From positions 5,607 through 69,606 of the IMG/VR virus record IMGVR_UViG_3300042898_004337: a stretch of 64,000 nt of DNA; one strand, 5' to 3'. A program made the translations under genes and the position numbers. The DNA is from a virus. Under the pieces are notes generated by a model that saw only the letters and a list, made by a program, of their open reading frames with translations, had not been told where the DNA came from and searched no databases. This document shows, piece by piece, positions 1 to 18,461 of this stretch. Position 1 is the stretch's first letter. Every line of letters starts with the position of its first letter.

Positions 1-558
1 ATTCAGTACCTGCGTGACGAATGCGCCAAACACTCTAACGTCTATTTCTTGGAAAAGGACACGAAGATCATCGATGATGTTGTGTTTGTAGGAGGTACTT
101 TGTGGACTGATATGAACAAGGGTGACCCTATAACTCTTCACGCTGTTCGTGATATGATGAACGACTTCCGTATTATTAAAAACGATGAAAAAGGTTACAC
201 ACCTTTGAAGCCTGCTGATACTGCTATTCGTCATCGTGAGACACTGCAATACATCAAACACATTGTCAGTGAGCACAAGGACAAAAAGTGTGTCGTTATT
301 GGACATCATGCACCTAGCAAGATGAGCACACATGAGCAGTACAAATCTCAATATCTCATGAACGGTGCTTATAGTAGTGATCTAAGTGAATTCATTATGG
401 ACCATCCGCAGATCAAATTGTGGACACACGGACATACGCATCACCCATTTGACTATGTCATTGGAGAGACTCGTATTGTTTGTAACCCTCGCGGATATGA
501 AAGCGACGGATACTGTGAAGACAGCGGTTGGGACATTACAAAAATAGTGGAAGTATGA
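1..558 (+). CDS. calcineurin-like metallophosphoesterase (5' partial, runs off window start)
   Basis: Open frame from nt 1 in same frame as ORF 49-558; GHHAP and GHTHH metallophosphatase-like motifs. Confidence 0.55.
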   Translation: MQYLRDECAKHSNVYFLEKDTKIIDDVVFVGGTLWTDMNKGDPITLHAVRDMMNDFRIIKNDEKGYTPLKPADTAIRHRETLQYIKHIVSEHKDKKCVVIGHHAPSKMSTHEQYKSQYLMNGAYSSDLSEFIMDHPQIKLWTHGHTHHPFDYVIGETRIVCNPRGYESDGYCEDSGWDITKIVEV

Positions 559-806
559 GTAGTACTGTACGTATATCGTGGGTTCGTAAATATGATAACT
601 CATTCTATTGGAATGAAGTATGTACATGGGCAATTGAATATTTTGGCCTGCCTGGGGGCAGATTCGAAACCCATGCCAATGTAAACTACATGGACTTTAT
701 TTTTAAAAGTAATAAGGATGCATTATTGATGGCGTTACACTGGAATGCCGAGATAGTGCCAAATGAACAAAAAACTGTGGAAACTTTTTCAAATTTCTCG
801 CAGTAA
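555..806 (+). CDS. hypothetical protein
   Basis: ATGA start/stop overlap with upstream gene; 83 aa ORF in track (528-806). Confidence 0.4.
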   Translation: MSSTVRISWVRKYDNSFYWNEVCTWAIEYFGLPGGRFETHANVNYMDFIFKSNKDALLMALHWNAEIVPNEQKTVETFSNFSQ

Positions 807-906
807 TTTGATATTTCGTGTATAAATAATATTGTAAGACGCCGTAAGGGTTTTACATTGAGGTATGGTACCTCAAAATGATTCTTGCTTATTAAGGAGA
901 AAAACT

Positions 907-1338
907 ATGAATCAACTCGCACGTTTCGACACCACCGCTCTAAATCAACTAAACAGAGCACTTATTGGATTTGATAGCCTTTTCAACGATGTTGAAAGAC
1001 GATTTTCAAACTCCGTTCCTAACTATCCTCCATACAACGTTCTAAAGCACGACGACAATTCTTTTGAAATTGAAGTTGCTGTTGCAGGATTTGATCGAGA
1101 GGATATCAGCATTGAGGTAGATCAAAGTCTACTTATTATTAAAGGCCAACGCCAGAAAGAAGACGACACATCTAAGTATGTATATCGTGGACTAGCAGCT
1201 CGAGACTTCGAACGCACGTTTACTCTTGCAGAGCACATTATTGTGGGCAATGCAGAATTGACAAACGGTATTTTAAGTGTTAAACTAACACGAGAAGTAC
1301 CTGAAGCACTCAAGCCTCGCGTGATTGCAATCAAGTAA
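907..1338 (+). CDS. small heat shock protein Hsp20/alpha-crystallin family
   Basis: AGGAG RBS 10 nt upstream of ATG 907; alpha-crystallin domain-like sequence (FEIEVAVAGF...SV.LT). Confidence 0.7.
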   Translation: MNQLARFDTTALNQLNRALIGFDSLFNDVERRFSNSVPNYPPYNVLKHDDNSFEIEVAVAGFDREDISIEVDQSLLIIKGQRQKEDDTSKYVYRGLAARDFERTFTLAEHIIVGNAELTNGILSVKLTREVPEALKPRVIAIK

Positions 1339-1380
1339 TATAACCCAGGGGGAGGCAACTCCCCGTCCAATAGGAATAAT

Positions 1381-1698
1381 ATGGCATCTGATACAATTAT
1401 CGAAAAAGACACAAAAACTATTTCTAAAAATAAGGAAAAAAGTCAAGAACCTACTAGGTACAAAGTCATTGTTTGCAACGACGATGTTACTCCTGTTGAA
1501 TTTGTAATATCCATGCTAGTTGCTGTGTTTAGACATAGTGAAAAAAGTTCTCTTGAATTGACTTTAAAGATACATAACAACGGACACGCTGTTGTAGGAA
1601 TCTATAGTTATGAAGTTGCAGACCAAAAAGGAATCGATGCTACCAATCTTGCTCGTACTAATGGATTCCCTTTGATAATTAAAGTAGAACCAGAATGA
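1381..1698 (+). CDS. clpS: ClpS-like ATP-dependent Clp protease adaptor
   Basis: YKVIVCNDDVTPVEFVISML...H..G.AV.G matches ClpS core (E. coli [20 protein letters not shown]). Confidence 0.7.
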   Translation: MASDTIIEKDTKTISKNKEKSQEPTRYKVIVCNDDVTPVEFVISMLVAVFRHSEKSSLELTLKIHNNGHAVVGIYSYEVADQKGIDATNLARTNGFPLIIKVEPE

Positions 1699-1706
1699 GG
1701 ATTTAA

Positions 1707-2243
1707 ATGAGCTTAAAAGATTTAACCAGTGCTAAACATGCAGAGGCTGAATCTACTCCGTTTATGAAGGCAGTGTTTGCAAAAACCCTGCCTTTTGATT
1801 TGTGGGTAGATTGGACATATCAAAAGTGGCTATTCTATGGAGCCATTGAAGGTGCCGCAGGGGCCAATCGATTGTTAGGAGACTTGCCAGACTTACGCCG
1901 TGCATTTTATCTAGCAATGGATTATCAAGAAATGAACGGGGACAATCCCCGCCATGAGTTCCGTCCTATCGTTGTTGACTATTACAATTACATTCTAATC
2001 ATTAGTAAAGATCCTAACAAGATTATGGCACACTTGTATACATGGCACATGGGTGACATGTTCGGTGGCCAAATGATTAAGAAGATTGTTCCGGGCGCAC
2101 ATCGTAACTTAGAGTTCGAAGATCCCCGAACACTGATGACCAATATTCGTGCCAAGCTAGACGACAGCATGGGCGATGAAGCCAATGTGGCCTTTGATTG
2201 GGCAATACGAATGATGAGGGACTATGACAGTAGTTTGGGATAA
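1707..2243 (+). CDS. heme oxygenase-like protein (HemO/PigA-type)
   Basis: GAGGA RBS; N-terminal ...H.EAESTPFMKAVF... resembles bacterial heme oxygenase helix; adjacent to bilin reductase gene. Confidence 0.5.
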   Translation: MSLKDLTSAKHAEAESTPFMKAVFAKTLPFDLWVDWTYQKWLFYGAIEGAAGANRLLGDLPDLRRAFYLAMDYQEMNGDNPRHEFRPIVVDYYNYILIISKDPNKIMAHLYTWHMGDMFGGQMIKKIVPGAHRNLEFEDPRTLMTNIRAKLDDSMGDEANVAFDWAIRMMRDYDSSLG

Positions 2244-2895
2244 GGTTAGTAAACTAGCCGCTGATATTACAGAAAGATTTAATGTTGTCGGGGAACAGAT
2301 TAATTCCCCGACTGCACATCAATATGGTTGGCATAATACTCTATGGTCCAGTAACCAATTCCGCAGAGCACATGTTGAAATTGTAGATTTCCGTGAGACC
2401 TACAATATCTACATATTACATGTCACAGTATTTCCGCACTTCAACGATCCTAGCCCTATCTATGGGTTTGATGCTGTATGCGGCCCAAACAAAATAACAG
2501 GTGCGTTTCACGACTTCAGTCACGCTGGTGATCCTAATAGTTTTATGTACTTGTGGTTTAAAGCCCAGGTGCATGGACTAGAATGGAACAAGCCTAGACA
2601 ATTACCCGAGTGGGCACAACAGATATTCAGTCCTGCTATAGTAGCTGCTGGTAACCTACAAGACGAAGCTGAAATAGACCAACTATGCAATACAGCATTA
2701 ACCACATTAGATTTCTATCTAAAGAATGTAGGAATAGAACAACAAAGTGGTGCTGATTATCACATGGCACAAAATCGTTATTGCCATTATCAGAAACAGA
2801 ATCCCCATGTGATCAAAAGTATGATTAGTATGGGCATATCTGAACCTACTATGAAGAAATTCGTACAGGAAATCTTATTCCCGGAATTTCACTAA
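2224..2895 (+). CDS. ferredoxin-dependent bilin reductase (PebS/PcyA family)
   Basis: GAGGGA RBS; FDBR-like core (ILHVTVFPHF...IYGFDAVCGP); follows heme oxygenase as in cyanophage ho1-pebS pairs. Confidence 0.6.
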   Translation: MTVVWDKVSKLAADITERFNVVGEQINSPTAHQYGWHNTLWSSNQFRRAHVEIVDFRETYNIYILHVTVFPHFNDPSPIYGFDAVCGPNKITGAFHDFSHAGDPNSFMYLWFKAQVHGLEWNKPRQLPEWAQQIFSPAIVAAGNLQDEAEIDQLCNTALTTLDFYLKNVGIEQQSGADYHMAQNRYCHYQKQNPHVIKSMISMGISEPTMKKFVQEILFPEFH

Positions 2896-2905
2896 ATACT
2901 CTATT

Positions 2906-4288
2906 ATGCGATCACGTGAATTTTTAACCCTATTAGAATCCGAGCAAACTCTTAATCCTAACAAACTGACAAAAGATATGGTACGGTTTGATAGGCTCAT
3001 TGCTAATATTACTGCCGGCAACCCTTTATACTTAAAAGACGGTACTCCTGTTGTTATTAAAAACACAGAAGCAAAGCGATTACAAGATCTTTTTGATCAA
3101 GGAAAATTTGCTGGTACTATAACTCTACTAGGTGCAGATCAAAAACCCTATCCACTGGGATCATTCTTAAAAACAAAAGAATACGGTGGTCAAAGTGTTC
3201 CTCCTAATCAACAAGACACAGATGCAGTTCCTGTTGCTGGCCTTAGACCAGGACAGGTCTTCCAACACGGTGACCCAAATAAAGATCAAAATCTAACACC
3301 CGAACTTGCCTTGGAGTTGGGGGCATTTCTTGCGGGACAATTGGGGCAAAAGATACAATCAAATAAACATCTTGATAGTCAGGGTGCAGCTGGTGCGGCT
3401 GTTAAAGAAATTTCCCGTGCAATTGATGCAGAACAAATTCCGACGGTTCCAGATCTCAGCAAATCAGAAATTGGCAACATACAAAACTATGGATTTGAAT
3501 ATCTAGGAGTACAAGCCCTAATCAAAGGTGTTGCAAATTTTCCAAATTCTGAAGCATTTTACGAACACGTGGGCGGCAATCTAGAGGAATTAGTATTATA
3601 TTTTCCGGCTAGTTCTAGTAATCCTGTAGCAGATAGTTACGCTCTTGTTAACAGAAAAACTGAAAATACTATTTTTATCAGCAGTAAGGGCGCTGGAGGT
3701 GGCATGCCAAGCAGTGTAACCGCATTAAAGATTCCCAATAACATGAGAAAAATGATTGGCAAAGATCCTGCAATTACATTTATTGACATGTTGCAACAAA
3801 ATGCCAAACCTGCATGGATACAACCGTTCTATGCCGCAAATTGGTTAGAAGAAAACTATCCAGGTTCAATGGGAGAATTAAGTAAATTTTTACCCTTTAC
3901 TGACGAATTGTTTATATATTTGTCCACTATTCTAAAATCTCGTAACGAAGGTGTGCCAGAAACACTAGATCAAATTCCAGCAGAATTTCAAGAACTATAT
4001 AAGTTAGTGGAAACTTCTATAACTGCTAAACACCCTTTATGGTACTACTTGAGATACTATGTCAAGGATGTAATTCATAGTGCTGTTAAGAAAGGCGTCA
4101 TTCCTAATTTTTCTAAACGTATGATTGAATTGTTAGGACAGAATTTTGTTCTATTAAAAACCACTATTAAAGGCAAGCAATTTATAACAGATGTAAAATG
4201 GCCTTCAAAAGTAGGTGGTACTATTACATTTGAGCACAAAGATCCTGCTCCAAAATGGGATAGTGCAATGACCTGGAAACTTAATTAA
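2906..4288 (+). CDS. hypothetical protein (460 aa)
   Basis: long ORF, no recognisable motif. Confidence 0.5.
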   Translation: MRSREFLTLLESEQTLNPNKLTKDMVRFDRLIANITAGNPLYLKDGTPVVIKNTEAKRLQDLFDQGKFAGTITLLGADQKPYPLGSFLKTKEYGGQSVPPNQQDTDAVPVAGLRPGQVFQHGDPNKDQNLTPELALELGAFLAGQLGQKIQSNKHLDSQGAAGAAVKEISRAIDAEQIPTVPDLSKSEIGNIQNYGFEYLGVQALIKGVANFPNSEAFYEHVGGNLEELVLYFPASSSNPVADSYALVNRKTENTIFISSKGAGGGMPSSVTALKIPNNMRKMIGKDPAITFIDMLQQNAKPAWIQPFYAANWLEENYPGSMGELSKFLPFTDELFIYLSTILKSRNEGVPETLDQIPAEFQELYKLVETSITAKHPLWYYLRYYVKDVIHSAVKKGVIPNFSKRMIELLGQNFVLLKTTIKGKQFITDVKWPSKVGGTITFEHKDPAPKWDSAMTWKLN

Positions 4289-4325
4289 TTATTCCTGTCG
4301 TTAAGTATATACTAAATACTTAACG

Positions 4326-4694
4326 ATGGAACTGCTCTCAATACTCCTTCTTTTGCAGATCAAGCATTGTTATGCTGATTTTGTCCTGCAGACTTATCAA
4401 CAGACCGTTAAAAAAGGTGTGTGGATGGACCCCACGGGAATTAGTCATACAACAGATCATATGTATTGTACTTTAATAGCAATGCTTATTTTCAGTTTCT
4501 TTGTTCCTGTTGGTGCGTTTGCTATAATATTTGTTACTCTAATTGAAGGTATTGTTCACTATCTTGTGGATTACAGCAAGGTAAAGTATGGTAGCAAAGA
4601 CAACACTAAACCTATCTTCTGGACACAGTTCGGTCTAGACCAGCTAGCACATCAAGTCACATACATATGGATGATATGGTTTTTGTTAGTTTGA
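4326..4694 (+). CDS. hypothetical small membrane protein
   Basis: 122 aa, three hydrophobic segments; 10-bp inverted repeat hairpin overlaps its start. Confidence 0.45.
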   Translation: MELLSILLLLQIKHCYADFVLQTYQQTVKKGVWMDPTGISHTTDHMYCTLIAMLIFSFFVPVGAFAIIFVTLIEGIVHYLVDYSKVKYGSKDNTKPIFWTQFGLDQLAHQVTYIWMIWFLLV

Positions 4695-4695
4695 A

Positions 4696-4726
4696 TTGTT
4701 AAACCCAACAAAACTGCGTATATAAT
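4696..4726 (+). promoter_or_regulatory. candidate sigma70-like promoter upstream of curli-like operon
   Basis: TTGTTA-N19-TATAAT; spacer longer than optimal. Confidence 0.25.
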
Positions 4727-4773
4727 CGCTCTCCAAATGCCCTTAAATATATGTAAGGACATCGGAGCGAGCA

Positions 4774-5262
4774 ATGAAGAAAATTAAAATAGCGTTAGGA
4801 GTATGTCTTACACTAGGACTTGCTACTGCAAATGCAGAATTGGTACACCAATTCAACAATCCTACCTTTAGCGGTCAAGGGTGGGCCAGCCAAGTGCTGA
4901 CTATGGAGCAAATGCGACAGAGCGCACAGGCCAGTAAAGCGTCAAGAGAGGCTGGAGAAAGAGCCGCAGCAGAAGCGGCCGCAGCAAATACACCGTTGGC
5001 TAGATTTATGAATCTGTTTACAGGACAAGTATACAGTCAATTGGCTACACAGTTAACTAACAATCTGTTTAAAGAATGTACTGGATCAAATTGTTCTAAA
5101 GGTGAGTTTATGGTAACTGAAACACAAAAAATTGTCTGGACTAAATTAGAGAATAATGTTACGCTGAATGTTTTTGATGGAAAAATCGTTGACAAGAAAT
5201 TTGTTCCAAATGCAAGTCCGACACAGACTATCACTGTGCCAGTATCTAGTTTTAATTTTTAA
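4774..5262 (+). CDS. csgF: CsgF-like curli assembly protein
   Basis: signal peptide then ELVHQFNNPTFSGQGWASQVL matching CsgF N-terminus ([22 protein letters not shown]). Confidence 0.6.
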   Translation: MKKIKIALGVCLTLGLATANAELVHQFNNPTFSGQGWASQVLTMEQMRQSAQASKASREAGERAAAEAAAANTPLARFMNLFTGQVYSQLATQLTNNLFKECTGSNCSKGEFMVTETQKIVWTKLENNVTLNVFDGKIVDKKFVPNASPTQTITVPVSSFNF

Positions 5263-5272
5263 GGAGCGATGG

Positions 5273-6238
5273 ATGAGAATATTTAAATTATCAACTATTG
5301 TTCTTGCAACAGCAGTATTGATGGGGTGTGCATCCGTAGTTAGACCTTTTGGCAAAGTAGGTATTGGAGACATACCAAAAGTAACAGAGACTATACAAAA
5401 AGAAATTGATACACTACCTGCGCCAGACGGTCCTAAGATTGCAGTGGCAGTTTACGGATTTAAAGACATGACTGGACAGAGAAAAAACAGCACCACGCTG
5501 AGTTTATTCTCAACCGCAGTAACACAAGGTGCCGAAAGTTATCTAATCAAGAGTTTACAAGAAGCAGGTAATCGTCAATGGTTTACTGTAGTAGAACGTG
5601 TTAATCTTGACAACCTATTAAAAGAACGTCAGATGATTAAACAGACTCGTGAGATATACGACGGAGCTAATGCTAAAATGCTACCACCTTTGGCATTAGC
5701 TGGAGTTATTCTAGAAGGTGGTATTATTGACTATAACAGTAATGTCCTAACAGGCGGAACTGGATTTGCAGTTTTAGGAATTGGCCCATACACACAGTAT
5801 ATGCAAGATCAAGTGGTAATCAGTATGAGATTAGTCAGTGTACAAACCGGAGAAATATTAACCAGTGTTACTATTGAGAAAAATCTTTTGAGTACCAAAG
5901 ACGGTACAACTGCTGTTAAATTTTACAATCAAGGAACGCGATCATTTGAGTTTGACAGTAGTCAAACTTTTAATGAACCAGGCAACTATGCTCTAAGGTC
6001 GGCAATTGAGCAAGGAATTATTGAACTAGTTAAAAGTGGAAAAAATCTAGGTCTATGGAAATTCAAGGAGAAACCTAATGAGTTGGTTCAAAAGGAAGCC
6101 CCACGTGAAGGAGCCGCCCAAACACCTTCCGCATCGTCAGTACAGCCCAGCAACGGAAAAAATGCTAGAGGAAGTAAAGAAGAAGGTAGTTGGAATGCTA
6201 CCGACGGATCAGGCAACAGGATCCAAACAACAAAATAA
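5273..6238 (+). CDS. csgG: CsgG-like curli secretion channel lipoprotein
   Basis: AAGGAG RBS; lipobox LMGC; LPAPDGPKIAVAVYGFKDMTGQ, WFTVVERVNLDNLLKERQ, ILEGGIIDYNSNV..GG.G...GIG..TQY..DQV...RLVSVQTGEIL all align to E. coli CsgG. Confidence 0.8.
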   Translation: MRIFKLSTIVLATAVLMGCASVVRPFGKVGIGDIPKVTETIQKEIDTLPAPDGPKIAVAVYGFKDMTGQRKNSTTLSLFSTAVTQGAESYLIKSLQEAGNRQWFTVVERVNLDNLLKERQMIKQTREIYDGANAKMLPPLALAGVILEGGIIDYNSNVLTGGTGFAVLGIGPYTQYMQDQVVISMRLVSVQTGEILTSVTIEKNLLSTKDGTTAVKFYNQGTRSFEFDSSQTFNEPGNYALRSAIEQGIIELVKSGKNLGLWKFKEKPNELVQKEAPREGAAQTPSASSVQPSNGKNARGSKEEGSWNATDGSGNRIQTTK

Positions 6239-6273
6239 AGTGAGACCGGTCAACAAAACCAGGAGCAAATAAA

Positions 6274-7080
6274 ATGAAAAAAACACTATTAGCAATTATA
6301 TTAGCCGCAACACTGCCGGCTTTTGCACAAACAGCACCTACTGCACCAACGCAGGCTAGTGCGCCCACGATTACTACAGCCAGTACCACACGCTTTGCAG
6401 CAGGCGTTACGGCTGCATTAGGTGCAAGTACAACTAACATTATCTATCTAGAGCAGACTGGATCTGCACCTACAGTCAGTATCAATCAAGACGGTAACAG
6501 TAACCGTGCTGGTGCTACTGCCGCAGGTGCTATTAACAGTATGATATTAGATGGTAATAATCAAGTTGTTACTATTGACCAAACAGGTAACAATAACATT
6601 ATCGACACAATGAAAATCACCGGAAGTGATGCTAATGTTTACTTGCTACAGTCAGGTAACAGCAACACAGCCAATGTAAGTTGTGGATTGACAACAACCT
6701 GTGCAGGACAAGCTGGCCTTGATGAAAATGCATTGCTTGATTTAAGATTCACTGGTAACAGCAACACTGCAAATTATACCGGCAATGGTACAGCACTTCA
6801 AGCAGCAGCGTATGTTACAGGCAACGGTAATACACTTAACTTAGAACAATCTAGCTCTACCGGTGCTGGTCAACAAATGTTGATTAACTTGTCAAGTAGT
6901 GACAACAACACTGTTAACGTTCTGCAATCTAGTGCAAGCATGAGCAGTTTAGTATTGGCACAAAACGGTACAGGTAGTACAACATTCAATATTAGCCAAA
7001 CAGGGGCATACTCTAACGTTGCTAATATTTCAGCCACAGCAGCAGGTGGTACTTTCAACATCATTCAGAAGAGCCGTTAA
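6274..7080 (+). CDS. secreted curlin-repeat protein (CsgA/CsgB-like)
   Basis: AGGAG RBS, signal peptide, about 8 degenerate curlin repeats (Q.G..N.A......Q). Confidence 0.65.
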   Translation: MKKTLLAIILAATLPAFAQTAPTAPTQASAPTITTASTTRFAAGVTAALGASTTNIIYLEQTGSAPTVSINQDGNSNRAGATAAGAINSMILDGNNQVVTIDQTGNNNIIDTMKITGSDANVYLLQSGNSNTANVSCGLTTTCAGQAGLDENALLDLRFTGNSNTANYTGNGTALQAAAYVTGNGNTLNLEQSSSTGAGQQMLINLSSSDNNTVNVLQSSASMSSLVLAQNGTGSTTFNISQTGAYSNVANISATAAGGTFNIIQKSR

Positions 7081-7092
7081 TCGGAGGATGCT

Positions 7093-8229
7093 GTGAAGTT
7101 ATGGGCCATTGCACTATGGTTGGTTTGCACCACTGCGGTTGCTGATATAGGATCAGTTGTTGATCTGTCGGGCACCGCAGTTATTAAACGTGGCAAAACA
7201 ACCGTCGCTGTGGTCAAGGGCACTGTAGTAGAAACCAATGACAAAGTTGAAACTAAAAACGGTGTAGTCAACATCAAGTTTAAAGATAATACCACTGTTA
7301 GAATAACTGAAAATAGTGCATTGGTAATAGATGACTTTGTATACGATCCTAAAAATGCTGCGGGCGGCAAACTTAGCCTCAAAGCCGCCACTGGTACTGT
7401 ACGTTATGTATCTGGCAATATTGCACACAACAATCCCAACAGTGTAAAAATTAATACACCCACTGCGTCTATCGCTGTTCGCGGTACTGACTTTGTTATG
7501 AGTGTTGACGAAACAGGCAAAAGCCTTGTTATGTTAATGCCTGCATGTGAAGTAAATCAAAGCATCAACTTAAAGGGAATGGTCTGTGGCAGTGGTCGCA
7601 TAGATGTTGACAGCGGATCAAAAATAATTACATTAGACAAACCTTATCAGGCAACCATTGTTGAAACAGCAGCAACACCTCCCACTGCTCCCGTAGTAGT
7701 TAACTTAGCCAATACTGCAATTGGTAATAATCTATTGATTCGTTTACCGAGCACTATGTCAGGTGTTGGTATACAACAGGCTGCTCGTGCTGCTGCTGAA
7801 AAAACCGGCGATGCTAAACGTGACGATGACAAGAAAGACAACAAAGATCCTAGTTCGGCAGAAGCCAAGGCAACTAACGATCAACAGAAAAACAATCAAG
7901 AACGAACTTCTAGAGAGCGAGATGCAGAAGATCGTGCCCTATCATTACTAACAGAACTAAAAGATAGGGGTGTTGTGGTAACAGACAAAGCATTTGAAAA
8001 CGAACATGTGGTTAGATACTACAAGAACGATAATCCAAACTTAAATCAATTGGGTATAGGCTATATGAGTCTAAGTGCTAATGGCAATAACTTTACCGCC
8101 ATAAGTCTAACCAATGACAACAAGGTGTTGGTAGTTGTTACACAGGATAGAATTACTGATGCGTTTAATTTTGCCGGGGGTAACAGTAAACCACAAGGCA
8201 GTATCATTATTAATCAGAGTTACAGATGA
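7093..8229 (+). CDS. secreted FecR-domain protein with acidic/lysine-rich C-terminal region
   Basis: GTG start after GGAGGA; signal peptide; TPTASIAVRGTDFVM resembles FecR domain core. Confidence 0.45.
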   Translation: MKLWAIALWLVCTTAVADIGSVVDLSGTAVIKRGKTTVAVVKGTVVETNDKVETKNGVVNIKFKDNTTVRITENSALVIDDFVYDPKNAAGGKLSLKAATGTVRYVSGNIAHNNPNSVKINTPTASIAVRGTDFVMSVDETGKSLVMLMPACEVNQSINLKGMVCGSGRIDVDSGSKIITLDKPYQATIVETAATPPTAPVVVNLANTAIGNNLLIRLPSTMSGVGIQQAARAAAEKTGDAKRDDDKKDNKDPSSAEAKATNDQQKNNQERTSRERDAEDRALSLLTELKDRGVVVTDKAFENEHVVRYYKNDNPNLNQLGIGYMSLSANGNNFTAISLTNDNKVLVVVTQDRITDAFNFAGGNSKPQGSIIINQSYR

Positions 8230-9710
8230 TAAGAAAACTATTTTTAATAATGTTGTTGCTGTGCTCTAATGCGTTTGCTGCTATTACTGATTTAAAACTT
8301 AGTACTGCACAGATATTCGATGTTCAGTGGAACATAAGCGGTGGCAGATTATATGCCAGCGGATTCAATTACATCTATGCGTCAGTAAACTATGCCACAC
8401 AAACTACCAGTGCGGCACGATGGACTTTAGCACAGACGCAGGATGCTAACAGCAATGGTAGATATATTGGATTCTTCAACAGCACTACCAATCCTGGTAC
8501 TTATGGTATGGCGGTGTTTAATAGTGACGGTACAAGATACAAAACAATCAACAATACAGGATCTTTCCGTGCCCTAGCAGATGGTGCTATTTTCTATAAT
8601 GGTAATGGAATGTGGGGAACATTAATTACAACAGGGCAAGGATATAACAACGGACAAAGTGGTAATTGGGCAGTGACTCAAGACAACCCGAATAACGCAC
8701 AATTACAGGCATACACGCCCCCTAGTTCAACTCCATTAGCAGCTGGACAAACTGCCGGAAGCAGTAGTCCAACAGTAACTGGTACTAGCACAACTAACAG
8801 CGTGTCTACGTCAAGTTCGAGTTCTAACACAAGTTCTGTTACTGTAACTCGTCCTACTACCACAGGAAATTTTAATGATGTGTTTGTTGGAACAACTACA
8901 GTAACTACGACTACAACTACTCCGGTTACTACTACAACCTATAGTGACGGTAGTACAACAACCAGTAACGGTAATCCTACCACAACTTCTAGCACTACTT
9001 ACGTTATTACACCAACCTATGGTACAGCACCTGTTTATTCTCGCACTGCTCCTAACATCGGTGGCAACAGCATCTATATCAAACAGGTTACTGCTGGATC
9101 AAACAACTCTGTTACATTAGAGCAAGATGGAAATAACAATGCCATTACAGGAACTGACAGCGGTTGGGCAACGTTAAATGGAAACAATAACATATTAAGC
9201 ATAAAGCAGTTTGGTCAAGGTAACATTGCAGGTGTTAAAATGAATGCCTGGGGCAACAATATTGACATTAAGCAACAGACTGCTAACGGTGGTGATGTCA
9301 ACAACAATATATTCAATTTTGAAAGTGCTGGTAATGGTAATGCAGTCACTGCTCAACAACAGAGCAATAACAATACCGCTAGTGTAAAAACTACATGGGA
9401 TATTAATACTGTAAACATTACACAAAAGACTGGAACAGGTAATGCAAGTTATGCTACATTAACAGGCAATTGGAACACTGTTAACAACACACAAGCCGGC
9501 AGCAACAATCTAAGCATTGTAAATGTCAGCGGAGACAACAACTCAGCAACAGTTAATCAAACTGGCACAGGACACAGTACTTTATTAAACTTAATTGGTA
9601 ATAAAAACACTGTTAGCGTCACACAAACAGGTGTAGGAGATGCCTACACACTACAACAGACCTGTACAAATCCAGCAGGCTGCTCGGTATCAGTTATTAG
9701 AAACAAGTAA
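8226..9710 (+). CDS. secreted protein with N-terminal domain, Thr-rich linker and C-terminal curlin repeats
   Basis: signal peptide; long T/S-rich tract; about 9 C-terminal Q.G.GN.A..Q repeats. Confidence 0.6.
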   Translation: MIRKLFLIMLLLCSNAFAAITDLKLSTAQIFDVQWNISGGRLYASGFNYIYASVNYATQTTSAARWTLAQTQDANSNGRYIGFFNSTTNPGTYGMAVFNSDGTRYKTINNTGSFRALADGAIFYNGNGMWGTLITTGQGYNNGQSGNWAVTQDNPNNAQLQAYTPPSSTPLAAGQTAGSSSPTVTGTSTTNSVSTSSSSSNTSSVTVTRPTTTGNFNDVFVGTTTVTTTTTTPVTTTTYSDGSTTTSNGNPTTTSSTTYVITPTYGTAPVYSRTAPNIGGNSIYIKQVTAGSNNSVTLEQDGNNNAITGTDSGWATLNGNNNILSIKQFGQGNIAGVKMNAWGNNIDIKQQTANGGDVNNNIFNFESAGNGNAVTAQQQSNNNTASVKTTWDINTVNITQKTGTGNASYATLTGNWNTVNNTQAGSNNLSIVNVSGDNNSATVNQTGTGHSTLLNLIGNKNTVSVTQTGVGDAYTLQQTCTNPAGCSVSVIRNK

Positions 9711-9729
9711 ATTTTGCTATAAATAACTG

Positions 9730-10062
9730 ATGCGATTCGACGACCTTATTAAAAAACCTGCCAAACCGCAGAAGCCATTGACCTATACAGAAAGTTTACA
9801 GGCTAAACTTGATGCAGAAATGGCGGATAAACCTGCTCCAAAATTTACAGCATTAGAATATGCTATGATGGAAGGTGGTCACAGTTTAGAAGAAAACTTT
9901 GCAGATGGTAAGAACCCGCAAGACAAAGGCGACAGCAAGCGTCACGGTGTTCCTACTAAATCGTCAGTAAGTACACTGCGTAAGGTTGCCAAGCAAGGTG
10001 GTCGAAAAGGTCAGTTAGCACATTGGATGGCCAATATGAAAGCAGGGAAGGCTAAGAAATGA
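9730..10062 (+). CDS. hypothetical basic protein
   Basis: ORF track; Lys-rich. Confidence 0.4.
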   Translation: MRFDDLIKKPAKPQKPLTYTESLQAKLDAEMADKPAPKFTALEYAMMEGGHSLEENFADGKNPQDKGDSKRHGVPTKSSVSTLRKVAKQGGRKGQLAHWMANMKAGKAKK

Positions 10063-10346
10063 AGATTCAAGAACTTTTAGAAGACTGGAACAAAGTCAAC
10101 AAACAAGACAAGACAGATGGCCTTAGTCAAAAGGCTGTTAATGCTTATCGTAGAGAGAATCCAGGCAGCAAACTTAAGACTGCTGTAACTACTAAGCCTA
10201 GTAAATTAAAAGCAGGCAGCAAGGATGCTAAACGCCGCAAGAGTTTTTGTGCTCGCATGTCGGGTAACAAAGGCCCTATGAAGGACGAGAAAGGTCGTCC
10301 AACTCCTAAAGCCAAAGCACTGTCTCGCTGGAACTGCGAGGAATAA
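10059..10346 (+). CDS. hypothetical basic protein
   Basis: ATGA overlap with upstream ORF. Confidence 0.4.
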   Translation: MKIQELLEDWNKVNKQDKTDGLSQKAVNAYRRENPGSKLKTAVTTKPSKLKAGSKDAKRRKSFCARMSGNKGPMKDEKGRPTPKAKALSRWNCEE

Positions 10347-10349
10347 AAT

Positions 10350-12413
10350 ATGAAAAAAATATTACTAAGCCCGTGGTTGGCATTAATTACATTGGTATTG
10401 ATAGCAGGTGTCAGATTTGCAGATCCTGCATTTGTTGAATCAGTTAGACTGCGATACTTCGATCAACTTATCATTAGCCAACCTAAACAAGACATTCCTG
10501 TACATACTGTTAATATAGATGAAGCTGCATTAGACAAGTATGGACAATTCCCTTTTCCTCGAGGACTATATGCTGACATTATTAAAGACCTATATGATAG
10601 AAACGCTGGACTTGTTGTGCTCAATATCCTCATGCCTGAATCAGATCGATTCAATCAAGATACTCAACTGGCCAAAGCCTTAGAAAAATATTCAGTGGTG
10701 CTGCCGCAGGTTGCCAGCACCACAGGCAAGAATAAGACGTTCGGAAGTGCTGTACAAATTGTAGGCGTTGACCCAGAAGGTAGTCTAGTAGAATATCCAG
10801 GTATTATCGCCAACGTTCCTATGCTAGAAGAACGTGCGGCTGGTGTAGGTGTTGTAAATACTTTTCCTGAAATAGACGGTGTTGTTCGTCGTATGCCGTT
10901 GCTAATACTAAGCGGAGAAACTGTGCATCCTGCAATCGGTTTAGAAACACTTAGGACTGCGGCAGGAGATACAAAAATACAAGTTAAGATTACAGACATG
11001 GGGGTTGAAGCAGTGCGTATTCCTAAACTGAATCGCATCAACGTAGATCCATTGAGTCGTGTATGGATTGATTGGAGCCAGCAACCCAAGCAACACAGTC
11101 TTGCCAAATTGCCCAAAGACTTCAACGGTGAAATCGTTATAGTGGGATTAAGTGCGGCAGGATTAGTTCAACCAGTAGCTACTGCTCGCGGCGAAATTTG
11201 GCCACAGGATATGCAGGCAAGTTTATTAGGTACAATGCTTAACGGCAAAACTATTCAGCGTCCAGGCTACGCAGATGACTTAGAAACAGTAGCTATTCTA
11301 ATTGCAGGTATATTGCTATTATTTTTAACGAGGTGGACCTATGCGGGATTGGCAGCGACAGTTGTTATTATTGGCGGTGGCATTGCTGGCAGCATCTATG
11401 CTTACAGCAGTCTTTTATTCTTATTCGATGCTACTGCCTTTGCAGTTGGCACAACTTTGGTCGCTCTGCATGCCTATGGCATCAAGTTTGTAAGCGAGTT
11501 CCTACAGAAGAGTCAGATTAAGAAACAGTTTGGCAGTTACGTAAATCCTGTTATTGTTGAACGCTTACAAAAAGATCCTAGCTTTATCAAACTGGGTGGT
11601 GAGAAGAAAGATTTAACTGTTATCATGAGCGACATGCGTAACTTTACGGGACTAGGTGAGACATACGGTGATGACGTTGTGGCATTTACACAGACTATGA
11701 ACCGTTACATGACTGCCATTGCGGAGCCTATACTGCGTAACAATGGGTGTTTGATCAAGTTCATAGGTGATGCGTCATTACACGTACACGGTGCTCCTAT
11801 TCAAGAAGAACAAGATCCGGATCATGTGTTAGCAGGAGTGCGTACAGGTCTTGAAATGTTGCACGCTGTTGAGCTGTTTAATATTGAACTTACCAAAGAA
11901 GGTAAGCCCTTAGTAGGTTGCGGATTGGGTATCAACACTGGCCCTACACTAATTGGTAACATTGGTAGTAAGGATCGATTTGGTTATGACGTACTAGGCG
12001 ACTCAGTAAGTTTAACTGCTCGACTAGAAGGACAGACCAAGAACTATGGTGTGTTGATCATCATTAGCGAGTTTACACAGGCTCGAGTAGGCGACAATTA
12101 CTTTACAATTCCATTAGACTGTATTGCTGTTAAAGGTAAGACTATTGGCGTTAACATATTCACAGTGTTTTACAATCCAGATGCCACTGTGGCAGCAGAT
12201 TGGATCATGGCTCGAGAGCATCATGAACTAATGTTAGAATATTATCGTCAACAACAGTGGGACAAGGCCATTACACTGTGCCAAGAACTTACAGGTGAGT
12301 TTGACGGCAAGATGGATCACTATTACGAATTATGGATTGAGCGTATTGCTGAGATGCGTACAAGAGATCTAGCCGCAGATTGGGACGGTACCTACAGAGC
12401 TACATCAAAGTGA
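10350..12413 (+). CDS. CHASE2 sensor domain-containing adenylate/guanylate cyclase (class III)
   Basis: GAGGA RBS; N-terminal TM plus periplasmic domain, internal TM helices, C-terminal LTVIMSDMRNFTGLGE...FIGDA..HVHGAP cyclase motifs. Confidence 0.7.
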   Translation: MKKILLSPWLALITLVLIAGVRFADPAFVESVRLRYFDQLIISQPKQDIPVHTVNIDEAALDKYGQFPFPRGLYADIIKDLYDRNAGLVVLNILMPESDRFNQDTQLAKALEKYSVVLPQVASTTGKNKTFGSAVQIVGVDPEGSLVEYPGIIANVPMLEERAAGVGVVNTFPEIDGVVRRMPLLILSGETVHPAIGLETLRTAAGDTKIQVKITDMGVEAVRIPKLNRINVDPLSRVWIDWSQQPKQHSLAKLPKDFNGEIVIVGLSAAGLVQPVATARGEIWPQDMQASLLGTMLNGKTIQRPGYADDLETVAILIAGILLLFLTRWTYAGLAATVVIIGGGIAGSIYAYSSLLFLFDATAFAVGTTLVALHAYGIKFVSEFLQKSQIKKQFGSYVNPVIVERLQKDPSFIKLGGEKKDLTVIMSDMRNFTGLGETYGDDVVAFTQTMNRYMTAIAEPILRNNGCLIKFIGDASLHVHGAPIQEEQDPDHVLAGVRTGLEMLHAVELFNIELTKEGKPLVGCGLGINTGPTLIGNIGSKDRFGYDVLGDSVSLTARLEGQTKNYGVLIIISEFTQARVGDNYFTIPLDCIAVKGKTIGVNIFTVFYNPDATVAADWIMAREHHELMLEYYRQQQWDKAITLCQELTGEFDGKMDHYYELWIERIAEMRTRDLAADWDGTYRATSK

Positions 12414-12432
12414 TAGAAGATGTTCTAGATGA

Positions 12433-12480
12433 ATATGCCAGGCTTTGGATCCTGGCATATTATTGGCCTTATTTTGTTTT
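12433..12480. terminator. bidirectional rho-independent terminator between convergent genes
   Basis: 10-bp stem ATATGCCAGG/CCTGGCATAT, 8-nt loop, followed by T-rich run. Confidence 0.55.
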
Positions 12481-12506
12481 AGGAAACTCTGACAACATTA
12501 AAGAAA

Positions 12507-12869
12507 TTAATCGTCTGCTGCTGCGTCGTTAATTTCTTTCTGTGTAAATTTTCTTTGAGGTATCGGAGATAGTTTTTTTTTAACGGGCTCGGGTTCTTTG
12601 TTTATAGATGCATCAGCAGCAATACGTTCTTTCTCAATGGTCTTGCCACGTAGTTCCATAACAGTTTCAACTTTTTGATTTAATCTGATAAGATCATTGT
12701 CTAACATTCTGATACGATCAATCAGTGCAATTAGTGTCCCGTTAGCTTGTCCTATAACAGGTTTGATTTCCGTGGTCACCCAAGTCCATACATAGTATAT
12801 GAAGTAGCCCATTCCGCCAGCGGCCACAATAGGAAATCCATACTTGTTGACTATTTCAACTATATCCAT
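12507..12869 (-). CDS. small membrane/coiled-coil protein (paralogue of 13196-13471)
   Basis: start MDIVEIVNKYGFPIVAAGGMGYF; one TM segment then coiled coil. Confidence 0.5.
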   Translation of the reverse strand: MDIVEIVNKYGFPIVAAGGMGYFIYYVWTWVTTEIKPVIGQANGTLIALIDRIRMLDNDLIRLNQKVETVMELRGKTIEKERIAADASINKEPEPVKKKLSPIPQRKFTQKEINDAAADD

Positions 12870-12870
12870 A

Positions 12871-13049
12871 TTACTTGTACCCCCTGTTAAATTTAACCAC
12901 AGGATCAACTTTAACTAGTTCAATCCTGCCGTCTGTGTTTCTAACTTCAAAATGATCACCAGCACGCCATTCTAATTTGTCTATATTAATTTCTCTATCT
13001 AGAATTATTCGATCTTTTCGAAGATCCCAATCATAGTCCATGTATTTCA
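12871..13049 (-). CDS. hypothetical small protein (about 59 aa)
   Basis: ATGA-coupled small ORF MKYMDYDWDL... between paralogues; coordinates approximate. Confidence 0.3.
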
Positions 13050-13195
13050 TCGGGCATTTTCCACTGTGTTAAGAATAAGATAGACCTGTCGGTAAGCCTC
13101 TTCAATCATTTCTAACTGTTCTTCGCTTAATTCGCTCTGTTCAAAATTTACTAAATCTTTTGCCAGTTCAGTCTGTAGTTGTTTAATTGCATTCA
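13047..13195 (-). CDS. hypothetical small protein (about 49 aa)
   Basis: ATG immediately follows stop of upstream gene; MNAIKQLQTELAKDL...; coordinates approximate. Confidence 0.3.
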
Positions 13196-13471
13196 TTAAT
13201 CTTTCCTTTGGTCGACTTGATCAGCACGAGCAATTCGATCATAATCGGGCTGTAAGCCCAACGCATGACTTACTTTAACATCGATACGTTGCAATTGATT
13301 AGTCATAGTATCAACCCGACTGTCTAGACCTTTAATAATGCCGCCCATTCCGTTTACGCTAGATGTCACTCCGGCTAAAATAAACTTCAGCGTTAGGAAA
13401 ACAAAGTAGCCAGCAGCCATTGCACCGGCTATCGGAAATCCTAGTTCTGCTACTAATTTTAAAAAATCCAT
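13196..13471 (-). CDS. small membrane/coiled-coil protein (paralogue of 12507-12869)
   Basis: MDFLKLVAELGFPIAGAMAAGYFVFL parallels MDIVEIVNKYGFPIVAAGGMGYFIYY. Confidence 0.5.
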   Translation of the reverse strand: MDFLKLVAELGFPIAGAMAAGYFVFLTLKFILAGVTSSVNGMGGIIKGLDSRVDTMTNQLQRIDVKVSHALGLQPDYDRIARADQVDQRKD

Positions 13472-13579
13472 ATCTTGCTCCGGTTTATTATATTTACAGT
13501 TAATGGTAAAATTAATATAGTAGTAGATAATTTTATTCTGTGCGTATATAATGTACTAAATATCTCAAAGGAACAGATC

Positions 13580-14191
13580 ATGTTTAACAAGAATAGACCA
13601 GTGGGCATAGAAAGTATTAAAAGCTATGCCCAAAAAATTGAAAGTGGATTTTTAGAAAAATACCTAAGTGGTAAAAACATTCTAGAAATTGGATATCAGG
13701 GATACAATGCAGGACGTGAAGTCGTACCCATTGTAGAAAACGCCATTGGCATTGATCAAGGTTATCCAGGCTATGACGGATTACACTTGCCATTTGAAGA
13801 TGCTAGTCAGGATGCAATTTACAGCAGTCATGTACTAGAACATATTCCGCACTGGGAACAAGCGTTACAAGAATGGTTCCGTGTACTAAAAGTAGGCGGC
13901 TATATGGTCATTGTTGTTCCACACTGGTTACTCTACGAAAAGAAGAAAGACTTGCCTAGTCGTTTTGCTGGAGTAGGGCATTTCCGTTACTATCTACCTA
14001 GCACCTTACTTGCAGAAGTACAAGAGGCACTCCCACTAGGTGAATGGCGCTTACGTCACATGTGTGACAACGATACGGGCTTTGACTACAGTTTACCTGA
14101 TACAACACACAGCGAAGGATGCTACGAAATTGAGTGTGTGATTGAAAAGATTGCAGACCCAGCATACATTACACAGATGATGAACAGATGA
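13580..14191 (+). CDS. SAM-dependent methyltransferase (class I)
   Basis: ATG at 13580 after AAAGGAACAG; LEIGYQGYN...HVLEHIPH..., VLKVGGYMV methyltransferase-like motifs. Confidence 0.55.
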   Translation: MFNKNRPVGIESIKSYAQKIESGFLEKYLSGKNILEIGYQGYNAGREVVPIVENAIGIDQGYPGYDGLHLPFEDASQDAIYSSHVLEHIPHWEQALQEWFRVLKVGGYMVIVVPHWLLYEKKKDLPSRFAGVGHFRYYLPSTLLAEVQEALPLGEWRLRHMCDNDTGFDYSLPDTTHSEGCYEIECVIEKIADPAYITQMMNR

Positions 14192-15621
14192 AAAGAAACT
14201 TATTAATTGTATTAAGAACTTGTACCCGTGTTAACATGCTCAACGGTGAAAACATGGGCGGCCGCTATCACAAAGTACCTAAGCATGAGCTTGTAAATGT
14301 TTGCCTTAGCAGTATTGTAGATAGTATTAATCACTGTGAAGGGCACGATGTTAAGCTAGTAGTCTTAGATGACAACAGCACACCCGAAGCAGTTGCTGAT
14401 TTTAAAATCATCCTTGCACAATGCAAATCGTCTACAGAGTTTGTAGCAGTAACAGGCGGAACTGGTGCTAGCTACACTTGCAAGAAAGTCTACGAAATTG
14501 TAGATCAACAGTGTACTGACTTGTGGTATCATGCAGAAGATGACTATCCGCATTTTCAAACTGCTATACAAGACATGCTAGATACTGTGTCACAGTTTGA
14601 AAGTATGACGGGCAAAATGATTGCTGTGAATCCACATGACGATGTTTATCGTTATACCGCACAAGTTTATCCTAGCATTTTGTTGTTTGGTCCCTACAGA
14701 CATTATCGCACGGTAAAACATAGCACTTATACATGCCTTGCTAGTCGTGCAGTCTTTGACAAGTACCGCAAACACTTTGACGATGCAGCGGAATGGATTC
14801 TACGCAAAGATGAAAATGACACTATTAATCAAGTCTGGAACAAAGACGATGTTATGATGTTCAGTCCTATCCCTAGCCTTAGTCTGCACATTACATTAGA
14901 GTCGTTAAAAGATCCTTACATTGACTTTGAAGGGTTGTGGTACAGTATTCCGCAACTGTGGAAGCGTGGTGATCCTAGTAAGTACGCTATTGTTAGTATG
15001 TTCAATGAGCCGCACTACGAATTAGCAGAACATACTTGGACTAACAATAAAGTCAAGTATGCAGAACAACACGGCTATCTAGCATCAGCTAAACGAGATA
15101 ACTTTAGTCCAGAAGCAGTACACTTTGACAAATTTACACACATTCTTGATACGTTTAATAAGAACCCCGATCTAGCATGGATATGGTGGCTAGACAACGA
15201 TGCTATGATCACTAACTACAATCTCAAGATAGAAGATGTAATCGATGATAGCTATGATATTATTATGGCCACTGACATTGCCAGCCTTAACACAGGCAGC
15301 TTCTTTGTTAAGAACAGTGAAAATAGTCGCGTGTGGTTAGAGGACATGATCAGCAAACGCAAAGACTACCTCAACGATAAGAAATGGTTTGATCAACAGT
15401 GCGTGATCGACACCTATGTTACTTACAAGGACATCATCAAGTTGGTTCCTCAAAAGTCTATCAACAGTTATGACTATAGGATGTATAATGTACAGGGTAT
15501 AGACATGTTAGGTAATAACGGACAATGGGAACATGGTGACTGGGTTGTACATTGGCCAGGATTACACAACGGTTTACGAATTCAGCTTGCAGAAAAGTTT
15601 GCTAAAATTACAAACAAGTAA
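14188..15621 (+). CDS. putative two-domain glycosyltransferase
   Basis: LVVLDDNSTPE (GT-A-like) and WWLDNDAMI...TGSFFVKNS (nucleotide-sugar transferase DXD) motifs. Confidence 0.4.
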   Translation: MKRNLLIVLRTCTRVNMLNGENMGGRYHKVPKHELVNVCLSSIVDSINHCEGHDVKLVVLDDNSTPEAVADFKIILAQCKSSTEFVAVTGGTGASYTCKKVYEIVDQQCTDLWYHAEDDYPHFQTAIQDMLDTVSQFESMTGKMIAVNPHDDVYRYTAQVYPSILLFGPYRHYRTVKHSTYTCLASRAVFDKYRKHFDDAAEWILRKDENDTINQVWNKDDVMMFSPIPSLSLHITLESLKDPYIDFEGLWYSIPQLWKRGDPSKYAIVSMFNEPHYELAEHTWTNNKVKYAEQHGYLASAKRDNFSPEAVHFDKFTHILDTFNKNPDLAWIWWLDNDAMITNYNLKIEDVIDDSYDIIMATDIASLNTGSFFVKNSENSRVWLEDMISKRKDYLNDKKWFDQQCVIDTYVTYKDIIKLVPQKSINSYDYRMYNVQGIDMLGNNGQWEHGDWVVHWPGLHNGLRIQLAEKFAKITNK

Positions 15622-18351: not shown

Positions 18352-18363
18352 CCAAGTTTAAAT

Positions 18364-18452: not shown

Positions 18453-18461
18453 CCAAGACAA

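Follow-up and report, generated by a model that had tools for sequence, protein, structure and literature searches.

A probable curli-type secretion module in a large uncultured phage, with a CHASE2 adenylate cyclase and a curlin-repeat protein of swappable N-terminal domain

The DNA considered here is a 64,000-nucleotide stretch of a virus (IMG/VR record IMGVR_UViG_3300042898_004337, positions 5,607 to 69,606; hereafter the window), in which the segment at 4326-12413 is probably a phage type VIII secretion (curli) module of the sort known from marine pelagiphages. It is situated among the accessory genes of an uncultured phage that measures at least 240 kb. An initial sequence-only reading had picked out five co-directional genes at 4774-9710, coding in order for a CsgF-like protein, a CsgG-like lipoprotein, a curlin-repeat protein (here Cur1), a FecR-domain protein and a second curlin-repeat protein (Cur2), and both the Pfam matches and the coordinates bear this out, the five open reading frames (ORFs) being tightly packed on the + strand. 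The operon does not end at 9710 as then supposed; the unit extends further, with a CHASE2 adenylate cyclase gene at 10350-12413 as its sixth conserved member. Complete type VIII gene sets are also not new to phages, though that reading was aware of none: they are annotated in Pelagibacter phage HTVC008M and Methylophilales phage Melnitz and described in three papers (PMC7029224, PMC9004378, PMC9599517). With annotations in marine phages dating from 2013 and papers from 2020-2022, the window is a further example of the cassette and not its discovery. What is new here is the uncultured carrier (at least 240 kb, ~40% guanine plus cytosine (GC) and not closely related to any cultured phage), the finding that the sensor on the cyclase is a CHASE2 domain, and the swappable N-terminal domain of Cur2.

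A translated CsgG search of deposited phages returned Melnitz (46% identity) and HTVC008M (43%), in which Melnitz genes 99-104 and HTVC008M gp014-019 follow the order CsgF-CsgG-curlin-FecR-curlin-cyclase; functional annotations already stand on all six of these genes in Melnitz and on four of the six in HTVC008M. Within IMG/VR we recovered 56 related loci, whose CsgGs are 42-100% identical to that of the window (at least 63% in all but three). The order Hsp20, heme oxygenase, bilin reductase, DUF3307, CsgF, CsgG, Cur1, FecR, Cur2, cyclase is kept in ~55 IMG/VR contigs, with no cyclase being detectable in the fetched flank of some viral loci. The contigs reach 383 kb, a length that is not to be read as a genome size since the contig concerned, IMGVR_UViG_3300042868_005134 (L053/L055; 383,411 bp), carries a CsgG module at both ends (74%, partial, and 67% identity) and could be two related genomes concatenated or an assembly artefact.

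The CsgF-like secreted protein (4774-5262, +) matches Pfam PF10614 with 48.8 bits (E=1e-12; cut-off 25.8) and phrog_35372 with E=1e-20; its gene has a GGAG 7 nucleotides 5' of the ATG, and its signal peptide ends in ...ATANA, followed by ELV. In the mature N-terminus, ELVHQFNNPTFSG, the F, P, F and G are invariant across 37 distinct phage CsgFs, and the resulting F-x-x-P-x-F-x-G core aligns to the segment of E. coli CsgF that plugs the CsgG barrel. The phage protein is hence a CsgF whose N-terminal segment is predicted to dock into CsgG, as would be expected of a type VIII system. The CsgG-like protein (5273-6238, +; 321 residues) matches PF03783 with 164 bits (E=3e-48; cut-off 20.8) and the CsgG structures 3x2r/4uv3 in the PDB with E=1e-41, at 40.3% identity over 248 aligned residues. 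The longest exact runs shared with E. coli CsgG are of 4-5 residues, so that the long near-identical blocks first described were an overstatement. It has a lipobox, LMG before C19, with the Cys invariant in 10 phage homologues, a conserved CsgG core, and a constriction loop, TLSLFSTAV, in which the equivalent of Phe56 is retained; these features identify it as an outer-membrane lipoprotein channel subunit of the CsgG family. On the NCBIfam models CsgG scores 156.7 bits against an equivalog cut-off of 505, and the corresponding figures are 25.8 and 33.9 bits against 165 for CsgB and 22.4 and 17.2 bits against 160 for CsgA. Because these scores fall far below the equivalog cut-offs, the phage CsgG/CsgA/CsgB-type proteins are homologues of the enterobacterial ones and not their equivalogs.

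Secreted curlin-repeat subunits are supplied by both Cur2 and Cur1. Cur2 (8226-9710, +; 494 residues), whose start overlaps the stop of the FecR gene by 4 nucleotides, matches Curlin_rpt PF07012 with 47.3 bits (E=2e-12; cut-off 20.7). It is laid out as a signal peptide (8226-8279), a variable N-terminal domain (8280-8720), a Thr/Ser-rich linker (8721-9050; 35% Thr and 19% Ser) and a C-terminal part with ~9 curlin repeats (9051-9707) that ends in a conserved C-x5-C motif, its C480 and C486 being nearly invariant. An AlphaFold2 model from a 21-sequence alignment (mean pLDDT, the predicted local distance difference test, 70.9, with blocks of 75-89 over most repeats) shows residues 295-493 as 18 strands of six residues each that recur every 11 residues, i.e. 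~9 strand-turn-strand units, and a hidden Markov model (HMM) of the repeat finds 8 clear units and one degenerate. Both the Thr-rich linker and the count of about nine C-terminal repeats in the sequence-only reading are thereby upheld. A Foldseek search with the full Cur2 model against the PDB returned generic beta-helix proteins only (best E 0.027).

Cur1 (6274-7080, +; 268 residues; signal peptide ending in ...PAFA, followed by QT) scores 17.8 bits with Curlin_rpt and falls under its cut-off, whereas CsgG, CsgF, the FecR protein and Cur2 were all matched by the Pfam families that had been proposed for them. The repeats of Cur1 are nonetheless real: 9 copies of the motif phi-x-phi-x-Q-x-[G/S] are present where 0.14 would be expected and where no more than 2 were seen in any of 2000 shuffles, BLASTP aligns Cur1 to the Cur2 repeat region (E=1e-5), and the Cur2-repeat HMM, run over 363 ORF segments of the window, matches only Cur2 (1.5e-44) and Cur1 (E=0.005). 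Cur1 also matches the NCBIfam CsgB (7e-6) and CsgA (1e-4) models, both far under their equivalog cut-offs. On these similarities Cur1 is a candidate fibre subunit or nucleator. Reading the translations by eye, we found Sec-type signal peptides on all five proteins from CsgF to Cur2, with the lipobox in CsgG and, in the others, a basic n-region, a hydrophobic core and an AxA-type site (ANA before E, AFA before Q, AVA before D and AFA before A).

The gene following FecR varies widely among relatives, coding for 166-764 residues and beginning 4 nucleotides before the FecR stop at most loci. In 41 orthologues from the Cur2 position we detected Curlin_rpt in 17, an F5/8 type C (discoidin) domain in 12, PA14 in two and GLEYA in one; the last three are carbohydrate-binding or adhesin modules. 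Metagenomic homologues of Cur2 (~1000) repeat the same two architectures many times. A clean exchange is seen in the closely related loci L003, L004 and L052, to which the window is 97.8% identical without gaps over 1-8360 and 92.6% identical over 8817-15605; in between, the 456 nucleotides of the Cur2 gene at 8361-8816 (+) are replaced in those loci by 957 unrelated nucleotides of the discoidin version, so that Cur2 of L003 has 661 residues with an F5/8 type C domain. Homology is kept up to codon ~45 and returns for the linker and repeats. CsgA of E. coli curli has an N-terminal targeting segment, and by analogy the retained Cur2 leader, comprising the signal peptide and ~27 mature residues, is a candidate export-targeting segment.

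Somewhat speculatively, Cur2 might be a programmable adhesin, in which a conserved export leader and an amyloid-forming repeat anchor flank an exchangeable glycan-binding head of discoidin, PA14, GLEYA or some other fold. The heads would be swapped by recombination between near-identical jumbo phages, the target of the fibre would track variable surface glycans, and the FecR/CHASE2 cyclase pair would report the status of the fibre or envelope as cyclic AMP (cAMP). We favor an adhesin because of the F5/8 type C, PA14 and GLEYA fusions and because of the clean swap between genomes that are 98% identical, which together give a concrete and testable argument for a binding fibre over a pore only. 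If true, the reading as a programmable adhesin would imply a phage-encoded device for altering host behaviour, by aggregation or capture, that is under diversifying selection and occurs well beyond the SAR11 phages.

The secreted or periplasmic FecR-domain protein (7093-8229, +; GTG start) matches PF04773 (E=3e-11) and phrog_37870 (E=2e-63), and its signal peptide ends in ...TAVA, followed by DI. C152 and C165 are invariant in 20 orthologues, and a highly charged, Lys/Asp/Glu-rich low-complexity linker at residues ~235-290 divides the conserved N-terminal FecR region from a conserved C-terminal domain of ~80 residues ending in ...INQSYR. A profile of the protein found no relative among PDB sequences. 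Its C-terminus (VVVTQD...IIINQSY) was considered as a fibre-docking curlin-like unit, which the Cur2-repeat HMM does not support (E=0.76).

The membrane-bound cyclase (10350-12413, +; 687 residues) combines an N-terminal CHASE2 sensor (Pfam, E=5e-35) with a class III catalytic domain (Guanylate_cyc, E=2e-13); it matches phrog_35576 over its full length (E=1e-202), and its nearest solved relative is Cya2 (PDB 2w01/6fht, E=1e-25). In class III cyclases metal is bound by Asp residues, the substrate is specified by a Lys together with Asp or Thr, and the transition state involves Arg and Asn. All 32 distinct phage domains keep the two metal-binding Asp, the catalytic Arg and the Lys at -4, counted from the second Asp, while the second specificity position is D in 20, T in 10 and S in two. 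The specificity and transition-state positions covary as D+S or T/S+N, with the window type having Ser for Asn; in Cya2 the two specificity positions are occupied by Glu and Gly. Judged by these residues, the product of 10350-12413 is an adenylate cyclase, evidently under purifying selection, whose output would be cAMP. In Burkholderiales and P. aeruginosa a biofilm-linked operon has FecR-domain and CHASE2 genes side by side (PMC5192318), and in S. meliloti the gene for the CHASE2 adenylate cyclase CyaD1 (SMc02176) lies beside those for the FecR-domain protein SMc02177 and the cAMP regulator Clr (PMC5498481). The phage module thus looks like an alphaproteobacterial-type curli set fused with a FecR/CHASE2 sensor pair, and a CHASE2 sensor with FecR as its usual bacterial partner offers a more specific hypothesis than that of an iron regulator.

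Building on the gene identities, motif conservation, synteny, phage context and domain swap observed here, we propose that the infected cell most likely exports adhesive amyloid-type fibres, with secretion, polymerisation, adhesion, cAMP output and the benefit to the phage all being steps that we infer. During infection the Sec system of a Gram-negative host would export all the products; the CsgG lipoprotein would form an outer-membrane channel, capped by CsgF through its N-terminal F-x-x-P-x-F-x-G; and Cur1 and Cur2 would pass this channel unfolded and polymerise at the cell surface as beta-solenoid amyloid-type fibres. On these, Cur2 would show its exchangeable, probably glycan-binding domain on a Thr/Ser-rich stalk, rendering the infected cell sticky, a possible payoff being the capture of neighbouring cells, attachment to particles or shielding against other phages. 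The FecR protein and the CHASE2 cyclase would act as a periplasm-to-cytoplasm sensor pair that turns an envelope or fibre signal into cAMP. We prefer fibre subunits over a bare pore because two signal-bearing curlin-repeat proteins are conserved alongside CsgFG and because of the nine-repeat model of Cur2. The amyloid-fibre and biofilm-like roles suggested by the sequence-only reading remain plausible, while its third suggestion, virion decoration, is unlikely since all components bear Sec signals and would act at the outer membrane of the living host.

Several points weigh against this picture, beginning with the sub-threshold Pfam score of Cur1. No Pfam or NCBIfam match to CsgE, CsgC/CsgH or CsgD was found among the ten ORFs scanned at 2906-12413, as the sequence-only reading had anticipated for CsgE, CsgC and CsgD, so that chaperones of the CsgE and CsgC/H types are absent from this set. 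At the CsgG constriction, the phage lineages throughout have other residues in place of Y51 and N55 of the E. coli protein. The N-terminal domain of the window's own Cur2 has no Pfam match, its separate model is of low confidence (pLDDT 62), and Foldseek relates that model to beta-propeller lectins without significance (best E=0.31, TM ~0.2); its lectin nature is extrapolated from the relatives. Export of an extra domain of 150-320 residues through CsgG is likewise assumed, by analogy with display work on CsgA fusions, in which extra domains are reportedly exported via CsgG. Further, the pairing of the FecR protein with the cyclase is only one that we infer, because Cur2 and two small ORFs lie between their genes. 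Finally, cultures infected with Melnitz showed no clumping (Buchholz et al. 2022, PMC9004378). As to the missing components, CsgE, CsgC/CsgH and CsgD define the enterobacterial subtype and not the system as a whole, because they are also reported missing from alphaproteobacterial and phage modules (PMC9599517).

Some of these same points would suit a different and rather unlikely arrangement in which CsgG, with or without CsgF, serves as an outer-membrane channel and nothing more, taking up nutrients or cofactors or timing lysis in the manner of a secretin or pinholin, with the repeat proteins being accessory or vestigial. Roles of this kind have been proposed for the pelagimyophages and for Melnitz (PMC7029224, PMC9004378), and they agree with the absence of the periplasmic gate CsgE, the altered constriction residues and the unclumped Melnitz cultures (PMC9004378). 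Yet two curlin-repeat proteins with signal peptides stand in order with CsgFG in ~55 contigs and in both cultured phages, and Cur1 and Cur2 retain their repeat motifs. Moreover, the adhesin-type domains that are actively exchanged on Cur2 are hard to square with vestigial genes, and the plug motif of CsgF is invariant although a bare pore needs no CsgF.

We give similarly little credence to the proposal that two independent modules merely lie side by side, namely a curli fibre set and a FecR/CHASE2-cyclase pair that manipulates host cAMP, for metabolism or anti-defence, without any relation to fibres. Bacteria do have FecR and CHASE2 pairs without curli, the bacterial curli loci nearest to the phage CsgG lack FecR and the cyclase, the cyclase goes undetected in the fetched flank of some viral loci, and FecR and the cyclase are not always present (Wittmers et al., PMC9599517). 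Against this, FecR is interleaved between the curlin genes, with the 4-nucleotide overlap with the Cur2 start at most loci; the six-gene order is kept from HTVC008M to the window lineage despite a CsgG identity of only 43-46%; and the ocean-virome frequency ratios of the genes are near 1 (PMC9599517).

A role for the cyclase in defence or counter-defence by cyclic nucleotides, after the manner of Pycsar, is very improbable. Residues 418-561 of the enzyme match the PADLOC PycC model with E=8.7e-11, a match weaker than the generic class III ones (Pfam 2e-13; Cya2 in the PDB 1e-25). No other protein of the module matches a PADLOC model and no effector is seen, the enzyme has an N-terminal CHASE2 sensor, and it has residues of the adenylate cyclase type at the specificity positions (Lys at -4; Asp or Thr). 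We rejected this reading, given a generic cyclase-domain match only and a module with no transmembrane or TIR effector.

The surroundings of the module are those of a phage. The window has rIIA (phrog_612, 5e-131) and rIIB (phrog_609, 3e-80) and an array of 40 tRNA genes at 18279-27086, all on the + strand, that covers most amino acids, with three Met-CAT and several duplicates; 36 of the 40 are confirmed by Rfam at the gathering score, and the set is unusually large for a phage. The context had initially been called T4-like: rIIA/rIIB and the tRNAs do indicate a phage, but an affinity to T4 does not follow, as non-T4 jumbo phages have them too. The picture is completed by genes of phage type for Hsp20, heme oxygenase and bilin reductase, by phosphoesterases and by numerous auxiliary metabolic genes, and GC is continuous across the junctions (0.41 in the module, 0.39 and 0.38 in the flanks). 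The exact CsgG protein is recorded in 85 blocks of assembly collections, 24 of them with contigs of 0.2-1 Mb. The identical 321-residue CsgG gene is called in Ga0453091_000005 (JGI 3300042875; 239,901 bp), where the gene order matches over 21 kb, and the arrangement of the window recurs at 98-100% protein identity in three independent samples and in contigs of 208-240 kb. A chimeric assembly, or bacterial DNA joined to or mis-binned with that of a phage, can accordingly be dismissed as a most remote prospect already contradicted by the data: homologous cassettes do occur in records labelled as bacterial metagenome-assembled genomes (MAGs), but those contigs are short, of 35-41% GC and with phage-type Hsp20, heme oxygenase and bilin reductase neighbours, while the recurrence across samples, the even GC, the ~55 syntenic viral contigs and the presence of the cassette in two cultured, sequenced phages all tell against the chimera that the sequence-only reading had named as a ground for refutation.

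The MAG contigs in question (L062, L069, L070, L077, L082 and L110) carry the phage-type cassette, and among bacterial records the full cassette is found only on them; on L077 and L110 the block of Hsp20, heme oxygenase and bilin reductase known from the phage is present as well. All six probably come from phages and were mis-binned into bacterial MAGs. Their labels (Polynucleobacter, Bacteroidetes, Pirellulales, Rhodobacteraceae and Flavobacteriaceae) are mutually inconsistent and were not used as evidence for a host. In a scan of 185,579 species genomes the nearest cellular CsgGs came from Erythrobacteraceae, Sphingomonadales and Hyphomonadaceae, at 42-50% identity.

As for relatives among known phages, the module DNA has no near-identity match in 50,697 phage records. 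The best rIIA matches are 28% identical and belong to PA5oct-type jumbo phages; nine concatenated backbone proteins gave piecewise matches only, to XacN1, RsoM2USA, PA5oct, Pelagibacter phage Mosig and a Synechococcus phage, those to the jumbo phages of beta- and gammaproteobacteria and to Mosig being at 28-51% identity. In the 10 kb past the right edge of the window further accessory genes follow, and genes for the virion or for replication are absent. Of 8,000 metagenome candidates that were scored, 3,935 were CsgG homologues at E<=1e-20. The curli cassette is probably not confined to phages of streamlined marine bacteria, and is stable in a diverse and abundant lineage of large phages.

At the 5' end of the module, a gene at 4326-4694 (+) codes for a small multi-pass membrane protein of 122 residues with DUF3307 (Pfam E=2e-8; phrog_2470, 'membrane protein', E=5e-17). 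It lies directly 5' of csgF in nearly all IMG/VR relatives (52-81% identity), and this synteny suggests that it is part of the functional unit; it has no similarity to the gene upstream of csgF in Melnitz. The two small basic ORFs at 9730-10346 (+), of 110 residues and of 95 residues with DUF6321 (E=2.5e-18), are limited to some relatives (L003/4/52, L008, L013, L016 and L017) and missing from HTVC008M and Melnitz, and are probably not part of the module. PHROGs has families for four of the module proteins. Scans of 4000-13500 for sigma-70 promoters were uninformative (23 promoter-like sites against 23.5 expected), and those for terminators gave 15 sites against 6.4 expected, mostly on the opposite strand and none at the end of the operon. 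Rfam detects no riboswitch or tmRNA near the module and only tRNAs. The T4 late-promoter motif TATAAATA shows no excess (7 in the window, 7.9 by chance). One such T4 late-promoter-like copy lies at 9718-9725, in the 19-nucleotide gap between the Cur2 stop and the ORF at 9730, and is of doubtful significance; a second lies at 821-828, 5' of Hsp20.

Upstream, Hsp20 (865-1338) is followed by adjacent genes for a heme oxygenase (178 residues) and a ferredoxin-dependent bilin reductase (223 residues) at 1707-2895, a trio found ahead of the curli module in most of the related viral contigs. Among cultured phages Pelagibacter phage Mosig gives the best match (33% identity), and bilin synthesis is puzzling as the host is not evidently a cyanobacterium. 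The 460-residue ORF at 2906-4288, which separates DUF3307 from the bilin reductase, matches no Pfam, NCBIfam or PHROGs family. Shared with the closest relatives alone (L003/4/52, and weakly L033 and L039), it is a lineage-specific insertion beside the module. Just past the tRNA array, at 30495-31031 and 27896-29409, are an HD_4 protein (SpoT-like, of the ppGpp hydrolase type), a dual-specificity phosphatase-like protein, an AAA_33 kinase-like protein and a phosphoesterase, which are candidates for a takeover of host signalling. Farther downstream, an island at ~41000-58000 is of low GC (0.28-0.34 against ~0.40 elsewhere), with ORFs on both strands that code for two B12/radical-SAM enzymes, two fatty-acid desaturases, an AMP-binding (acyl-adenylate) enzyme, a QueC/tRNA-methyltransferase-like protein and several products without a family match; the island seems to be a block for lipids or secondary metabolites that was acquired separately. 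Two periplasmic solute-binding proteins have their genes at 56933-57913 (-; DctP, TRAP type) and 58332-59243 (-; a faint TctC, tripartite tricarboxylate type), their labels being taken from the Pfam annotations of the identical contig L140.

Phage curli genes have been treated at length before. Zaragoza-Solas et al. 2020 described a 'curli operon' in pelagimyophages, for which they proposed a pore role or 'sibling capture', and found freshwater SAR11 myophages to lack it (PMC7029224). Buchholz et al. 2022 modelled CsgGF of Melnitz and proposed a gated secretin or pinholin role (PMC9004378). Wittmers et al. 2022 explicitly recognized curlin-repeat proteins, FecR and adenylate cyclase in podo- and myo-pelagiphages, noted that FecR and the cyclase are not always present and that the gene-frequency ratios in ocean viromes are near 1, reported transcripts and an alphaproteobacterial affinity of the phage genes, and found these at all 65 GOV2 stations, at ~0.1% of viral proteins (PMC9599517). 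Viral csgGF are mentioned in other surveys too. The window does not decide between the functions put forward so far, which are the capture of siblings, shielding against superinfection, a pore for uptake and a timer of lysis.

Compared with the modules of HTVC008M and Melnitz, that of the window has the six genes in the same order and orientation, likewise lacks CsgE, CsgC and CsgD, and likewise has its nearest cellular relatives among the Alphaproteobacteria, whereas the proteins are merely 26-46% identical. The window has two small ORFs before the cyclase that HTVC008M and Melnitz do not, the equivalent of CsgG Phe56 is Phe in the window lineage and Leu in both of these phages, and GC is 0.38-0.41 as against 0.34-0.37 at their loci. 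While pelagimyophages are of 140-147 kb, contigs of the window lineage span 208-383 kb, the upper figure being that of the contig with a module at both ends, with ~40% GC and 40 tRNAs, and are unrelated to them at the DNA level. Directly 5' of csgF the window lineage has DUF3307, with no kinase domain match, in place of the histidine kinase of the podovirus versions (PMC9599517), and neither the discoidin, PA14 and GLEYA fusions on the second curlin nor the CHASE2 identity figures in the main text of that paper.

With the csgBAC-csgDEFG system of E. coli and Salmonella the phage set has in common the CsgG channel, the CsgF plug motif and Q/N/G-rich strand-turn-strand subunits. It differs in lacking CsgE, CsgC and CsgD, in the substitution of Y51 and N55 of CsgG, in having one subunit fused to a large N-terminal domain and a Thr/Ser-rich linker, and in forming a single co-directional cassette with FecR and the cyclase. 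Alphaproteobacterial curli loci also have curlin-like repeat genes 3' of CsgG, but no FecR or CHASE2 cyclase was detected within 10 kb of them, unlike in the phage, and their chromosomes are of 55-68% GC against 41% for the phage module. In the bacterial FecR and CHASE2 pairs (Burkholderia 'BiofilmReg' and S. meliloti) the two genes are adjacent, whereas in the phage a curlin gene lies between them. The output domain in the S. meliloti pair is likewise an adenylate cyclase; unlike that pair, the phage FecR and CHASE2 proteins are embedded in a secretion cassette, with no cAMP-responsive regulator (Clr/Crp) encoded nearby.

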